Shown here: positions 1 to 4,260 of the stretch, in pieces
Layout: each line of letters begins with the position of its first letter
How positions within the stretch are numbered: position 1 is the first letter of the stretch
Assembly: GCA_024275165.1 (NCBI GenBank)
Contig: JAJRZQ010000025.1
Span: 50,519 to 114,518 of the forward strand
DNA from: a bacterium
GTDB taxonomy: Bacteria > SAR324 > XYD2-FULL-50-16
Length of the DNA: 64,000 bases
Reading direction: 5' to 3'
Program-made: the position numbers and the translations under genes
The notes under the pieces: model-generated
What the model saw: only the letters and a program-made list of their open reading frames with translations
Told to the model about the DNA's origin: nothing
The model's database searches: none

Positions 1-331
1 CTAAAGAAACCGCCAGGGCAGAAGCCAACACAGGCTCAGACCCGAAGAGTTGAAAACAGGTCACCCCCACTAAGGCGGAGAAAAAATGCCCTCCCAAAAG
101 GTTTCTCGGTTGGGACAAGGGCGCCTCAATCGCCCCGTAGAGCAACACGGCAGAGGCGCCAAAACTCCCGATAATCATTACCAGGTCGTTGCTGGTCGCC
201 CAATTCCAATGCAAGGCGGCGACACAGGCAATCCCTAAAAAGCTCCCCAACCAGGACCAGAAAATTTCGATTTTAGGGATTCGCGGGGCACTCCGCCCGA
301 CTCCCTTCATTTTTTTTATATACTGCTTCAC
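1..331 (-). CDS. HPP family membrane protein (N-terminal part; runs off the window edge)
   Basis: Not in the ORF track. Manual translation from GTG at 331 (RBS-like AGAGGA upstream): MKQYIKKMKGVGRSAPRIPKIEIFWSWLGSFLGIACV...IIGSFGASAVLLYGAIEAPLSQPRNLLGGH. The SFGASAVLLY...PLSQPRN..GGH signature is typical of HPP proteins. Confidence 0.85.
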   Translation of the reverse strand, partial: MKQYIKKMKGVGRSAPRIPKIEIFWSWLGSFLGIACVAALHWNWATSNDLVMIIGSFGASAVLLYGAIEAPLSQPRNLLGGHFFSALVGVTCFQLFGSEPVLASALAVSL

Positions 332-353: not shown

Positions 354-914
354 CTAGTCCGAGCTCCTCCTCGGCCCCTGACGCACCAATAAAACTCCGG
401 TCCAAAAAACCAGAAACATCAAAAAAACTGGGGCCGCCCACAACATAGCGACCCCGGTAGCCTGTTGTTGTTCTAAAGAAAAGCTCGCGCAAACCTGCAC
501 CGATGTTTGACTTAAAATCAACCCGTACATGCTCCACATGGCGATGCCATAGATTGCCGCGGCAATTTGCACGGGAAAGGCCAAAAGCGGCAAGCTCAAG
601 GCTAGTACCGCCCCAGATATCAAAAGACTCAAATGAGCCAAAAAATCAATCCCCTCTTGGGCTACCGCCAAATCCAAAGAACGAGGGACCATCCAAAACA
701 AAACCCCACCCCAGCCTAAAATCAGCAGACCCAAAGCATTGCCCGGCCCCCAAGAGAGGCGCAAAGGGCTGAAACGCACTCCCACAGCCCCTAAAATGAA
801 AAGCAAGGGGAACTGAATCAGCATCAAGCGACTCATGGAGTCATCCAGGTAGGGATCGAGAGGGGGGAACATCAACAGAGCTACGGTTAGCGCCCAAAAC
901 AATCGGCGAATCAT
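354..914 (-). CDS. Polytopic membrane protein, CtaG/DUF1404-like oxidase assembly factor (orf1 of norSY-senC-type clusters)
   Basis: The track ORF starts at 1055. The likely start is ATG 914 (MIRRLFWALT), which overlaps the SCO stop as ATGA. About 5 hydrophobic segments and a His in LAHLSLL. Confidence 0.6.
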   Translation of the reverse strand: MIRRLFWALTVALLMFPPLDPYLDDSMSRLMLIQFPLLFILGAVGVRFSPLRLSWGPGNALGLLILGWGGVLFWMVPRSLDLAVAQEGIDFLAHLSLLISGAVLALSLPLLAFPVQIAAAIYGIAMWSMYGLILSQTSVQVCASFSLEQQQATGVAMLWAAPVFLMFLVFWTGVLLVRQGPRRSSD

Positions 915-1543
915 AACCCCTCTTCCCGCAAGGCTGCCTGCAACACCTCCCAAGTGGGAACCTCGGCAAAAGATTGCGTGATCAACCCTTGGGGGTTGAT
1001 CAAAAAGGTTCGGTTGGTATGACGAAGCTGACCCTGAAGATCCAACTCGACCCAAGCGCCCATGGCTTTAAGTTGCTCCCAGTAGGCCTCCAGCCCGATG
1101 TCCTGAGGGCTGGCAAGCAGCCATTGCCGAGGCGAGCCATAGCCCTCCCACACCAGACGCAATAGTTTTACTGAATCCTGCTCCGGGTTTACCGTTAAGG
1201 TCAAGAGGGTTAGAGAGGTTTCTTTTTGCTCTTGCAGCTTTTGGTGCAACCCTTGATAAGCTTCGACCGCCAAGGGACAGGAGACCGAACAAGCGAGAAA
1301 ACCAATATTCAACAAATAAAAACGGCCTCTCAGTTGATCTAGGCGAAAGCCCCTCCCCTGATGATCCAAAAACCATAAAAGGGGAGGGAGCCTGGGCAAG
1401 GGCTCGGCAGCTTGAAACACAAATTCGTCGGTGGTAAAGGCCTTAAAACCCAAAGTCCACCAAGAAAGCCCCCCCCAGATCAGCCCTAAGGCAACCAGGG
1501 GGGCGGCTCCCAATTTGAAAAAAAGCCCTAGTTGCCTGACCAT
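911..1543 (-). CDS. senC: SCO1/SenC family copper chaperone
   Basis: N-terminal TM helix, CxxxC motif (ACSVSCP), conserved His in HTNRTFLINPQG, TVNPEQDS motif. Confidence 0.85.
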   Translation of the reverse strand: MVRQLGLFFKLGAAPLVALGLIWGGLSWWTLGFKAFTTDEFVFQAAEPLPRLPPLLWFLDHQGRGFRLDQLRGRFYLLNIGFLACSVSCPLAVEAYQGLHQKLQEQKETSLTLLTLTVNPEQDSVKLLRLVWEGYGSPRQWLLASPQDIGLEAYWEQLKAMGAWVELDLQGQLRHTNRTFLINPQGLITQSFAEVPTWEVLQAALREEGL

Positions 1544-2967
1544 GCCTGCTTGACGCCTTTAAAGACGGCAATGTAATAGGCTATTGCCCCCACCGCGATC
1601 AAAAGGATAAACAAAGAGGCAATGCCTGCGGTCATTTGCCCTACCTGGGCGACCGACTTTATGGGAAGGGAGTCGTAATTCGCCATGCGGCGAGGCACAG
1701 ACTGAATTCCCCCAATAAAGAACATGGCGACAAAGCCAAAGCCGCCCAAAAGCAAGCTCCAGAGGCCAAAGCGAGCGAGCTTATCCTCTTTTGGCCCCAT
1801 CAGGTAATAAAGAACCGCCAAGATCATCAAGACCACACCGAGCAAAAAGTAGGTATGGAAGTGACCGGGAACCCATTGCGTGTTGTGCAAAACTTGGTTT
1901 AAACGAATGGTGGAGTCCACCACGGCGGCAAAACCGCCAACAATCCAACCCATGATCCCCAAGACAAAGGCCAGGGGAACAAAACTCCATTTCATGTCAG
2001 CGCGGTAAATCTGGGCGAAAACCCCAAAAATGGTCACCACGGTTGCCGGCACGGTACTCAAGTAAGAGGCGAACTGCCCGACATACTGCACCCAAACCGG
2101 TTGCCCGAAGTCAAAATAGAGGTGATGGAAGTAAGCGAGAAGAATCAAAAACAAGCTCGCGTTCCAAGAAAGGGCAATGATCTTGTTCATCTTCCAAGCG
2201 CGCCCCGAGTAGAGGGGCAGCATGGCATAAACCGCGGCAACCCCAAAATAAAGGGTGATATTCACTAAAGTATGGCCGAATAAAAAGACCATGTTTTTCA
2301 TCAACAGGGCATCAAACTCAAGCGCCGGATTGAGCCATTTCGCCAAGTAGAGCATGAGCATGATCGCGCCCACAACGGTGGTCAAGGCCCCTGCGATCAT
2401 GCTCACCGAAGTGATCACCACCATGGGGGGCAAGTCTTTTTCTTTGGGGTTTCCACTGAGATATCCCCAGCCCAGCCCCTCGGCAAAGCCATACCTTTTG
2501 GCAATGGCGCGGAGTACATCCAACTGCCCCAAAAGCCAAGCGACCCCTAAAAGCATTACGGAAATCACCGCGGTGCCCACCGCCCATTCGGGCCAAGTCT
2601 TGATAAAAGGCAAAGGATAAAGCACATACCAACCGGCCCCGAAGCGACCGATTAAGGTCGAGAGCATCAACCCCACCACCCCTAAAAGGATCAGGACATA
2701 ATTGAATTTAGCCAGCCCCAAACTCGGTTTCGTGTATTGGGATATGAGATACCAGACCCCAATATAGGCCGCTACATAAAGTACCCCTACCATTCCCAAC
2801 CCGTGCAGGGTCATTAAGGCATAAAAGAAGTCCGGGGGCAGATCCAGGGCTCCTGCTTGGTTGAGGCGCATGGTAAAACCCAAGAGTACCAGCACAAAGA
2901 ATACGACCAACCCCGTAATGGCGTATACAATCGCCAATCTTTTGGTCTGCAATTGATTCTCAGACAT
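1528..2967 (-). CDS. Heme-copper oxidase superfamily subunit I, probable sNOR-type nitric oxide reductase catalytic subunit (NorY-like)
   Basis: About 12 TM helices and all six His ligands (MTLHG, FGHTLVN, YFHHLY, GHFH). The H-x3-Y cross-link Tyr is replaced by Asn. Confidence 0.85.
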   Translation of the reverse strand: MSENQLQTKRLAIVYAITGLVVFFVLVLLGFTMRLNQAGALDLPPDFFYALMTLHGLGMVGVLYVAAYIGVWYLISQYTKPSLGLAKFNYVLILLGVVGLMLSTLIGRFGAGWYVLYPLPFIKTWPEWAVGTAVISVMLLGVAWLLGQLDVLRAIAKRYGFAEGLGWGYLSGNPKEKDLPPMVVITSVSMIAGALTTVVGAIMLMLYLAKWLNPALEFDALLMKNMVFLFGHTLVNITLYFGVAAVYAMLPLYSGRAWKMNKIIALSWNASLFLILLAYFHHLYFDFGQPVWVQYVGQFASYLSTVPATVVTIFGVFAQIYRADMKWSFVPLAFVLGIMGWIVGGFAAVVDSTIRLNQVLHNTQWVPGHFHTYFLLGVVLMILAVLYYLMGPKEDKLARFGLWSLLLGGFGFVAMFFIGGIQSVPRRMANYDSLPIKSVAQVGQMTAGIASLFILLIAVGAIAYYIAVFKGVKQAWSGN

Positions 2968-2988: not shown

Positions 2989-3537
2989 TTATAAAACGGT
3001 GAATTTAGAAGTCATGGACTGGTGTCCCATGCCGCAATATTCGAGACAGACTAAAAAATATTCACCCGGTTCATTAAAGGTATAATATAGCTTGGAAGGA
3101 TACCCCGGCATCGCTTGGGTCTGGATCAACAATTGCCCTTGGGAATTGTAGATGGCCAAGCCGTGGTTGACATCTTCGGAGCTGATTGAGAATTGCACCA
3201 ACTTCCCGGCGGGAACAGCGGTGGGGGCAATTTCGGTGGTGCCCGATAAGGCTTTGATCTCGGTGACTTCCCAGAACCACAGCTTTCCCTTTACGGTGAC
3301 CTCGTACGCTGGAGCCGCGCCCTCAGGCGGGAAGTAAGGCAAGCCCCGCAAGGTAGCAAAAAGAGTAATGAGAATGACCAGGGATAAAAATATAAAATAT
3401 TTGCCCCGCATGGCGTAAATGCCTGGGGTGACGGCCTCTGCCCTTTCAGGGCTGCGAGTCGAGCGAATCAACCAAAAGGTGATGCCAAAAATGGTCATCG
3501 TCCCAATGAGGGTTATGAGTCCTGCTTGCCAAGCCAT
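2989..3537 (-). CDS. CuA-containing subunit II (NorS-like) of the heme-copper enzyme
   Basis: Two N-terminal hydrophobic segments, a cupredoxin domain with DVNHG and the complete CuA motif CLEYCGMGHQSM. Confidence 0.9.
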   Translation of the reverse strand: MAWQAGLITLIGTMTIFGITFWLIRSTRSPERAEAVTPGIYAMRGKYFIFLSLVILITLFATLRGLPYFPPEGAAPAYEVTVKGKLWFWEVTEIKALSGTTEIAPTAVPAGKLVQFSISSEDVNHGLAIYNSQGQLLIQTQAMPGYPSKLYYTFNEPGEYFLVCLEYCGMGHQSMTSKFTVL

Positions 3538-3648
3538 AGTACCTACCTTTATTGTAGAAGCGTTAACAGAGGGGGAATGCTTTCACCCCGTTTCATTGTA
3601 TGCTGAGGCGATTTTGTTTACGATAGGGTGGTTGCCTCCAGCCCCCTA

Positions 3649-3671
3649 AAGATGCATTTAAATTACATCTT
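3649..3671. promoter_or_regulatory. NsrR operator (11-1-11 inverted repeat)
   Basis: AAGATGCATTT-A-AATTACATCTT closely matches the established NsrR consensus AAGATGYATTT-N-AAATRCATCTT. It lies between nsrR and the oxidase operon. Confidence 0.85.
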
Positions 3672-3685
3672 TTATAAAACAGGCT

Positions 3686-3699
3686 TCGATTTAAATCAA
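3686..3699. promoter_or_regulatory. FNR/DNR (CRP-FNR family) box
   Basis: TCGAT-TTAA-ATCAA, one mismatch from TTGAT-N4-ATCAA. Confidence 0.55.
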
Positions 3700-3705
3700 T
3701 ATGTA

Positions 3706-3716
3706 AAATGCATCTT
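3706..3716. promoter_or_regulatory. Perfect NsrR half-site (second, weaker operator)
   Basis: AAATGCATCTT is a consensus right half. The corresponding left half is degenerate. Confidence 0.5.
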
Positions 3717-3804
3717 TATGGACTTTGCCGAAGCCCGCTTGTTCATTTGTGAAAAATAGGCTATCCTGAATGAAAAAGGTTTCATTTACTACCCGCACAA
3801 AGCC

Positions 3805-4260
3805 ATGCGCATTACCAAACAATCCGATTACGCCTTGCGCGTACTCATGTACCTTTGTGCCTATCCAAAACGCTCTTGCACCATCAAGGAGATTTCCGAG
3901 AGCTTTGACATCTCCCAAAACCATTTAATGAAGGTCGTTCAGCATTTGGCGCAGCACGGCTTTGTCAAAACAATCCGGGGGAAAAACGGAGGGATTTGGC
4001 TCGGCCGGCCGGCAGAGCAAATTTTAGTGGGGGAGGTCTTACGCAAACTTGGCGAGGGGGATGATTTATTAGAATGTTTTAGAGAAGAAGACAGCTGTAA
4101 GATATCCCCCCTCTGCGCGTTGAAAAAAATCTTTAACCAGGCGAACGAAGCCTTTTTCAACGCGTTGAATCAATACAGTCTCGCTGACATCATTGGTGAT
4201 CGGGCAGCGATTTCCAACCTGCTGCAACGCTTGCCAAGCCCATGCAAGCTTGAGGCTTAA
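3805..4260 (+). CDS. nsrR: Rrf2-family NO-sensing repressor NsrR
   Basis: MRITKQSDYALR with Asp8, the SQNHLMKVVQHL helix, three Fe-S Cys (ECFREEDSCKISPLC), and an adjacent NsrR box. Confidence 0.85.
   Translation: MRITKQSDYALRVLMYLCAYPKRSCTIKEISESFDISQNHLMKVVQHLAQHGFVKTIRGKNGGIWLGRPAEQILVGEVLRKLGEGDDLLECFREEDSCKISPLCALKKIFNQANEAFFNALNQYSLADIIGDRAAISNLLQRLPSPCKLEA

Follow-up and report, generated by a model that had tools for sequence, protein, structure and literature searches.

An sNOR operon of a SAR324-related bacterium behind a predicted NsrR-repressed promoter of the hmp-nsrR type

What controls transcription of an operon coding for an sNOR-type heme-copper enzyme, when the gene of an Rrf2-family regulator diverges from its first gene? 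The question is raised by a 64,000-nucleotide stretch of DNA (the window; contig C14, positions 50519-114518) from a metagenome-assembled genome (MAG) of 2.69 Mb that is 98% complete. The nearest named relative of the host is 'Candidatus Lambdaproteobacteria bacterium RIFOXYD2_FULL_50_16', which belongs to the same family. The five genes of the sNOR operon are all found on the minus strand and the Rrf2 gene on the plus strand, separated by a gap of 267 bp (3538-3804). The original prediction, made from the DNA letters, read this gap as a switch responding to nitric oxide (NO) in which direct repression by NsrR is combined with activation by an FNR- or DNR-type protein. Every sequence element that it listed is present in the DNA where it was placed. 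The gap is likely to be a standard NsrR-repressed promoter module of the hmp-nsrR type that is joined to the sNOR operon. Numerous bacteria place such a module between nsrR and hmp, the gene of their NO-detoxifying flavohaemoglobin. NO control of this operon is very likely because the gap holds what reads as a standard two-operator NsrR promoter.

Predicted operators and promoter between nsrR and the sNOR operon

The elements of the gap and the regulator gene are the following, with the basis of each assignment within brackets.

3649-3671, no strand assigned: predicted NsrR operator 1, full 11-1-11 palindrome AAGATGCATTTAAATTACATCTT (consensus match, uniqueness, conservation)
3694-3716, no strand assigned: predicted NsrR operator 2, hybrid box (perfect half-site plus a degenerate half that contains the -35 hexamer)
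3694-3699, minus strand: predicted -35 hexamer TTGATT of the sNOR operon promoter (A(T/G)CAA invariant in nine aligned loci)
3671-3676, minus strand: predicted -10 hexamer TATAAA of the sNOR operon promoter (conservation only)
3538-3664, minus strand: predicted 5' leader of the sNOR operon, about 127 nt (not conserved among relatives)
3739-3767, plus strand: candidate nsrR promoter TTGTTC-17-TATCCT (C..TTG invariant in six sNOR-linked loci)
3805-4260, plus strand: nsrR, predicted Rrf2-family [4Fe-4S] NO-sensing repressor of 151 residues (domain, ligands, neighbourhood)

The near-consensus NsrR palindrome of the original prediction is fully borne out. The sequence AAGATGCATTTAAATTACATCTT at 3649-3671 has two mismatches to the consensus AAGATGCATTTNAAATGCATCTT, which specifies 22 positions, and a match with three mismatches or fewer was met in none of 100 shuffles of the window. 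It is also the sole site with at most four mismatches in the whole 2.69-Mb genome. Genome matches with five mismatches occur in about the number expected by chance (a rough estimate that does not come from shuffling), and scans of the genome with the strict and the relaxed consensus gave no other convincing NsrR target. The perfect half-site AAATGCATCTT at 3706-3716, which had also been noticed originally, is confirmed and forms the right half of a weaker 23-bp box (3694-3716) whose degenerate half spans 3694-3704. This operator 2 is the second-best NsrR-like match of the window locus and is kept in nine loci.

A sigma70-type promoter that faces the sNOR operon is predicted between the half-site and the palindrome. 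Its hexamers TTGATT (3699-3694) and TATAAA (3676-3671) are spaced by 17 bp, and TTG(C/A)TT-17-TAnnn(A/T) is found at the aligned position between the boxes in all six sNOR loci. The same facing -35 and -10 pair is read from the sequences and their alignment in both qNOR loci. The sNOR operon probably starts near 3664. Operator 1 abuts the -10 hexamer, the last A of TATAAA being the first A of the palindrome, and covers the predicted start (approximately -7 to +16). The original prediction had put the start near 3652 and used TAATTT as its -10 hexamer. TAATTT does exist on the minus strand (3665-3660), but the conserved hexamer at 3676-3671 is the better candidate for this role and moves the start by about 12 bp, so that the position near 3652 is probably wrong.

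The predicted leader shows no sign of a structured RNA: a search of 3300-4000 against Rfam gave nothing at gathering score, with only sub-threshold noise from eukaryotic microRNA and small nucleolar RNA families, and the fold of the 132-nt leader is unremarkable (z-score -0.31). A terminator-like hairpin is called at 3589-3610 (plus strand) in the leader region; it is not conserved and belongs to the strand that is not transcribed for the operon.

From the arrangement of these elements we infer that NsrR binds the gap, represses the operon and responds to NO. The sigma70-type promoter on the minus strand, with its start near 3664, would drive the norS/norY-senC-orf1-HPP operon. Holo-NsrR carrying its [4Fe-4S] cluster would bind the palindrome 3649-3671 over the start site and also the hybrid box 3694-3716 that overlaps the -35 hexamer, and the two bound sites would together occlude RNA polymerase. 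Nitrosylation of the cluster by NO would then release NsrR from the DNA and allow transcription of the operon. An activator would not be required.

The regulator and the recurrence of the two-box layout

The regulator carries an Rrf2 domain (Pfam PF02082, 128 bits, E 3e-37). Its top match among NCBIfam models is NsrR (NF008240, 132.7 bits; equivalog cut-off 182), followed by RirA (125.1 bits), and its best match among proteins of solved structure is S. coelicolor NsrR (5n07). The NsrR hallmarks that had been noticed in the divergent Rrf2 gene hold in this alignment, where Asp8 and Cys91/98/104 of the regulator correspond to Asp8 and Cys93/99/105 of the S. coelicolor protein. These four residues of the regulator and the recognition helix SQNHLMKVVQ do not vary among 11 clade members. 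Many homologues of the regulator carry the JGI name 'nitric oxide-sensitive transcriptional repressor'. Its orthologues adjoin sNOR genes in seven loci, qNOR genes in two and a cytochrome P460 gene in one, and flavohaemoglobin (hmp), NnrS and alternative oxidase (AOX) genes are also among the partners of the clade. The Rrf2 protein is assigned as an NsrR because its closest relatives adjoin sNOR, qNOR, cytochrome P460 or flavohaemoglobin genes. It appears to be a dedicated local regulator of this operon, since the genome has neither nirK, nirS, qNOR or cNOR genes nor a second NsrR box.

Conservation was followed in the window and eight related loci, and in about 57 metagenome loci. The divergent nsrR-sNOR arrangement is kept in seven loci and is found in family members (G007, G008) and in metagenome contigs (L087/L088, L089, L091 and L099). 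The intergenic regions of the sNOR loci are otherwise unalignable, with a mean identity of 54%, and have discrete blocks in common. The first of them is a 23-bp box, AAG-N17-CTT, where the window has 3649-3671, and a TA(n)AAA motif abuts it. The others are the block AAAKCAAYAT..AAAATRC..CTTT at 3693-3717 and C..TTG about 22 bp beyond that block. The best match to the NsrR consensus in each of six orthologous loci (4.6-12 kb) is the site aligned with operator 1 (site 1), while the site aligned with operator 2 (site 2) ranks second or third and lies 44-49 bp from site 1.

The closest other NsrR homologues are encoded in SAR324-type contigs (L097, 2547-5447; L098, 2569-5453), where they are divergent to a qNOR gene and are followed by an rnf operon. 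This qNOR of 739 residues is a NorB protein with a cytochrome-c-like amino terminus. A cytochrome P460 gene is the divergent partner in a further locus (L100, 4289-5474), where the NsrR homologue has 48% identity and two NsrR-like boxes are spaced by 42 bp. The qNOR- and P460-linked loci carry the same two boxes, spaced by 42-45 bp, together with the facing -35 and -10 pair. Note that G007 holds separate NsrR copies for its sNOR and its qNOR, which are 63% identical to each other. The direct NsrR repression of the oxidase operon that had been proposed for this locus is supported by the regulator clade, whose genes always adjoin NO-handling ones, together with boxes that keep their position in all orthologous loci and bracket a predicted sigma70-type promoter just as in hmp-nsrR cassettes.

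The layout extends beyond these loci. A metagenome scan, run as an exact-pattern search with the site-2 block, returned 120 loci (L104-L223), of which 64 code for an NsrR-like protein, directly downstream and in the same orientation in 57. The score of the upstream palindrome is bimodal: 34 loci have at most five mismatches at a distance of 39-48 bp, mostly 47 bp, and the rest are at background (9-11 mismatches). Divergent partner open reading frames of at least 150 codons number 35 and include 22 with a globin domain, 20 of them with the FAD and NAD domains of flavohaemoglobin, one alternative oxidase and one NnrS. The partner strand of 16 of the 21 distinct loci reads half-site, TTGCTT, 17 or 18 bp, -10 hexamer, full palindrome, ribosome-binding site and ATG; the -35 hexamer is TTGCTT in nearly all metagenome cassettes. 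Among the scan loci the sequence AAAGCAATATnnAAAATACATCTTT is conserved very widely and marks the stretch immediately ahead of nsrR genes. Since the metagenome cassettes show the same layout, the intergenic region of the window can be described as a classic hmp-nsrR module in which sNOR replaces hmp. A bolder proposal, a little less likely than not, is that nsrR and its two-box bidirectional promoter make up a portable NO-switch cassette that was recombined ahead of genes for flavohaemoglobin, qNOR, sNOR, P460, NnrS and AOX. If so, position behind the cassette could serve genome-wide to predict functions related to NO.

Several observations weigh against an NsrR-repressed promoter module in the gap. 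The start site and the hexamers are predicted from conservation alone, and a generic promoter scan flagged neither the operon promoter nor the candidate nsrR promoter. For the former the scan requires a T at the end of the -10 hexamer, where TATAAA has A; for the latter, TTGTTC matches the consensus at only three of six positions. In the closest relatives operator 1 is a degenerate site that has 4-6 mismatches. The left half of operator 2 is conserved as AAGCAATAT and not as a true half-site, and may be a promoter element instead of an operator; note that AAGCAATAT, which is the left part of AAAGCAATATnnAAAATACATCTTT, is conserved beyond the needs of a -35 hexamer, suggesting an asymmetric operator or a dual promoter and operator role. 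With 132.7 bits the regulator falls short of the NsrR equivalog cut-off (182), and RirA is nearly level (125); this is taken as divergence and not as exclusion because NF008240 was trained on enterobacterial NsrR. Finally, the link is lineage-specific: 78 other sNOR loci have no NsrR box. Their operons, which span Bacteroidota, Gemmatimonadota, Myxococcota, Alphaproteobacteria and others, gave no signal in the upstream regions, with two weak matches in 37 kb, compared with 13 in 637 kb of other sequence.

Only one further Rrf2 neighbour is found among these other sNOR loci, in a Xanthobacteraceae MAG (L016, 2754-3882). The Rrf2 gene (40% identity) is co-oriented and directly upstream of the gene coding sNOR subunit II, and a degenerate palindrome, AAGTAGTATAGTCAATACCAATT, is positioned just ahead of its start. 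This locus may be an autoregulated rrf2-sNOR operon.

Other readings of the gap

The two boxes could serve mainly for autoregulation of nsrR, the sNOR operon being transcribed from a separate promoter, unregulated or differently regulated, within the 127 bp nearer to its ATG. The site-2 motif indeed accompanies nsrR in 57 metagenome loci regardless of which gene is the partner, and TAAAAT is present on the nsrR strand within site 2. Where the metagenome loci are compact, the distance from site 2 to the nsrR start is only 11-30 bp, which forces the nsrR promoter to overlap site 2 in these loci. At the locus of the window the sequence TTGTTC-17-TATCCT, downstream of both boxes, may be the nsrR promoter in this clade. 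It matches the consensus weakly; the qNOR loci have TTGTAA-17-TATCTT at its place and L100 has no aligned sequence there. Autoregulation of nsrR is possible at this locus. That it would be the main role of the boxes is improbable, because positions 3538-3648 are not conserved and have no promoter-like match on the minus strand, in all loci the -35 and -10 pair that the boxes enclose is directed at the partner gene, and the palindrome of hmp cassettes is found 10-25 bp before the ribosome-binding site and start codon of the partner, which it must therefore control. Autoregulation of nsrR and control of the operon are compatible and neither excludes the other.

The activator of the original prediction depends on a third element within the gap.

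3686-3699, minus strand: FNR-like dyad TCGATTTAAATCAA, minus-strand reading TTGATTTAAATCGA (one mismatch, not enriched)

In that proposal an FNR- or DNR-type activator would bind TTGATTTAAATCGA (3699-3686), centred at about -40.5 from a start near 3652, in a class II arrangement with TAATTT (3665-3660) as -10 hexamer and NsrR bound over it at 3649-3671. The dyad matches the consensus at nine of ten positions, TAATTT is present and the arithmetic to 3652 is correct. A one-mismatch box has a prior of approximately 2% in a given non-coding stretch of 267 bp (24 boxes in about 280 kb of non-coding DNA). The genome also codes for two Crp/Fnr-family proteins, of which the one encoded in contig C31 has an E-x2-SR recognition helix.

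The box is real as a string of letters but its significance does not hold. With three one-mismatch FNR-type boxes in the window against 2.06 expected, their number does not exceed chance; across the genome such boxes number 274, and 24 of these are in non-coding DNA. Perfect FNR boxes number ten in the genome. Nine of them are inside long open reading frames, without enrichment in non-coding DNA, and they give no sign of an FNR regulon. None of the eight related loci keeps the left half of the dyad (3686-3690). Its right half is the conserved -35 hexamer and is fully accounted for by it; only this half is conserved. The boxes at orthologous operons thus part company: the NsrR boxes are kept there and the FNR-like box is not. 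The dyad probably is fortuitous and exists because the -35 hexamer is TTGATT here, instead of TTGCTT, next to a chance ATCGA in the spacer. With the conserved promoter its centre moves from the claimed position near -41 to about -29, which would be a repressing and not an activating position.

The proteins that might act on the box give the same picture. Neither of the two Crp-family proteins has the amino-terminal Cys cluster of FNR or reaches the cut-offs of the FNR, FixK or CRP models (best FNR score 57 bits against 228), neither matches the DNR/NnrR models, and no N-oxide genes are near either of them. Class II activation by FNR or DNR is thereby left with an unconserved half-box and without a recognizable FNR or DNR orthologue, and the dual switch is judged slightly less probable still than boxes devoted mainly to nsrR. 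An 'FNR box' that arises as a false positive from a -35 hexamer is a caution for motif reading in AT-rich intergenic DNA.

Least probable of all is that the Rrf2 protein is an iron- or redox-responsive relative (RirA-, IscR- or RsrR-like) and the operon an oxidase under iron or Fe-S control: the RirA score nearly equals the NsrR score, both being below cut-off, and the Cys spacing C-x6-C-x5-C of the regulator is between those of E. coli NsrR (C-x4-C-x5-C) and RirA, but the operator has the NsrR motif, unlike the iron-responsive RirA or IscR motifs, Asp8 is present and aligned with Asp8 of S. coelicolor NsrR, and the clade partners are hmp, qNOR, sNOR, P460, NnrS and AOX.

The sNOR operon, its host and the known NsrR systems

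The genes of the operon follow in the order of transcription.

2989-3537, minus strand: sNOR subunit II, COX2/cupredoxin domain of CuA type (Pfam COX2; NCBIfam CoxB below cut-off)
1528-2967, minus strand: sNOR subunit I, heme-copper oxidase homologue (Pfam COX1, 203 bits)
911-1543, minus strand: SenC/SCO1 copper chaperone (Pfam SCO1-SenC)
354-1055, minus strand: orf1 membrane protein (weak DUF1404 match; position conserved among related loci)
2-331, minus strand: HPP-family membrane protein (Pfam TM_HPP), the last gene on the operon strand, extending past the window edge

The real start of orf1 is probably near 920, as its orthologues have 183-196 residues. Helix VI of subunit I reads GHTLVN, in which H232 and N236 are invariant (25 homologues). 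This H-x3-N motif means that the cross-link Tyr is replaced by Asn while the CuB histidines are kept. Asn at the position of the cross-link Tyr is the sNOR/bNOR signature. An HPP gene is present after orf1 on the operon strand in four loci, namely the window (2-331, minus strand), L005 (3352-3894), L006 (3362-3898) and L090 (2677-3219), and is absent from L087, L089, L091 and L099. Some HPP-family members transport nitrite. The order subunit II, subunit I, SenC, orf1 is present at the locus, with the SenC order shared by L087, L089, L090, L091 and L099, and corresponds to norS-norY-senC-orf1, the named layout of the sNOR cluster (PMC4940428, PMC6967387).

The genome inventory of the host has no nirK, nirS, qNOR, cNOR or cbb3 genes. 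The sole other heme-copper enzyme of the genome is an aa3-type subunit I with a normal GHPEVY motif (C39:1-1239), cut by the contig end. The sNOR is therefore the only candidate NO reductase of the genome, probably with a role in detoxification, and looks like a detoxifying enzyme and not a denitrifying one. As a separate observation, an imperfect palindrome of about 23 bp, AAGGAGTTTTTCAGAGGTTCCTT (complement AAGGAACCTCTGAAAAACTCCTT), occurs more than 20 times in the genome, mostly outside long open reading frames (for example at C14:13165, C17:9804, C31:46875, C5:27308, C7:63739 and C16:63192). It may be an intergenic repeat of the repetitive extragenic palindrome (REP) type or resemble a terminator.

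The sNOR family is widespread: most ammonia oxidisers have it, as do many uncultured lineages. It may contribute to the emission of nitrous oxide. Its function is disputed between an NO reductase and a high-affinity, NO-tolerant oxidase; the family is marked as uncharacterised in Murali et al. and a study of N. europaea calls for more work on its function. The cross-linked Tyr is needed for O2 reduction (Murali et al.), so that its replacement by Asn in subunit I argues for NO reduction. Independent regulatory evidence for deployment of sNOR under NO comes from the textbook NsrR promoter predicted here, from the same cassette ahead of qNOR in close relatives and from separate cassettes in one genome. 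If the reading of a portable cassette is right, this would be the first regulatory evidence that a family never purified acts on NO in vivo, as the sole NO reductase of a non-denitrifying SAR324-related bacterium. Of the NO role that had been claimed for the enzyme on regulatory grounds, expression under NO is the part that is supported; the regulatory context by itself does not tell whether the enzyme reduces NO or respires O2 in an NO-tolerant way. For experiments the locus provides a simple system of one 170-bp promoter fragment and one repressor.

The original prediction held an sNOR-type operon to be new as an NsrR target. This is roughly right for the searchable literature, where no sNOR operon is described as being under NsrR control, the main sNOR paper makes no mention of regulation and no paper contains both 'sNOR' and 'Rrf2'. 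The novelty is qualified by Nitrosococcus oceani, in which nsrR (Noc2967) adjoins the sNOR genes Noc2969-2971 (Stein et al. 2013, PMC3772326, Table 1). The likeness is that nsrR is there a chromosomal neighbour of a norS-norY-senC cluster, but by locus-tag order it lies at the distal end of the cluster and is not divergent from its first gene, and no operator or regulatory link is described for the pair (PMC3772326).

Respiratory enzymes under NsrR provide a second comparison. AOX is an NO-tolerant O2 reductase and not an NO reductase. NsrR-regulated aox is predicted in Vibrio fischeri (PMC1274295), which likewise places a respiratory terminal enzyme under NsrR, and an AOX partner is also found among the metagenome cassettes. 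Since NsrR also controls NO-tolerant oxidases of this kind, NsrR control alone is no proof that sNOR reduces NO. Closer in function are the NsrR sites predicted upstream of norB (and of nirK/aniA) in Neisseria, Chromobacterium, Burkholderia and Ralstonia solanacearum (PMC1274295). They too serve a membrane NO reductase of the heme-copper superfamily, and relatives of the present host use the same arrangement with qNOR. The enzyme of the window differs in being a CuA sNOR derived from the B family, never purified, and not a qNOR or cNOR, and its host has no nitrite reductase.

The nearest known system is the hmp-nsrR region and the NsrR regulon of proteobacteria and Bacillus. The NsrR motif was published as gATGyAT-N5-ATrCATc with hmp as core target, and the E. 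coli hmp and ytfE operators are cited in the same work (Rodionov et al. 2005, PMC1274295). The region shares with the locus of the window the regulator family, the operator (AAGATGyATTT-N-AAATrCATCTT), the divergent layout and the two-box design, with a palindrome just after the -10 hexamer and a half-site beside the -35 hexamer. The partner here is an sNOR operon of four to five genes and not a flavohaemoglobin gene, its predicted leader has about 127 nt instead of about 20-40 nt, and the host, uncultured and SAR324-related, is a relative of 'Ca. Lambdaproteobacteria' and not a classical proteobacterium. An sNOR operon controlled by NsrR would thus be a new type of target for a known regulon.

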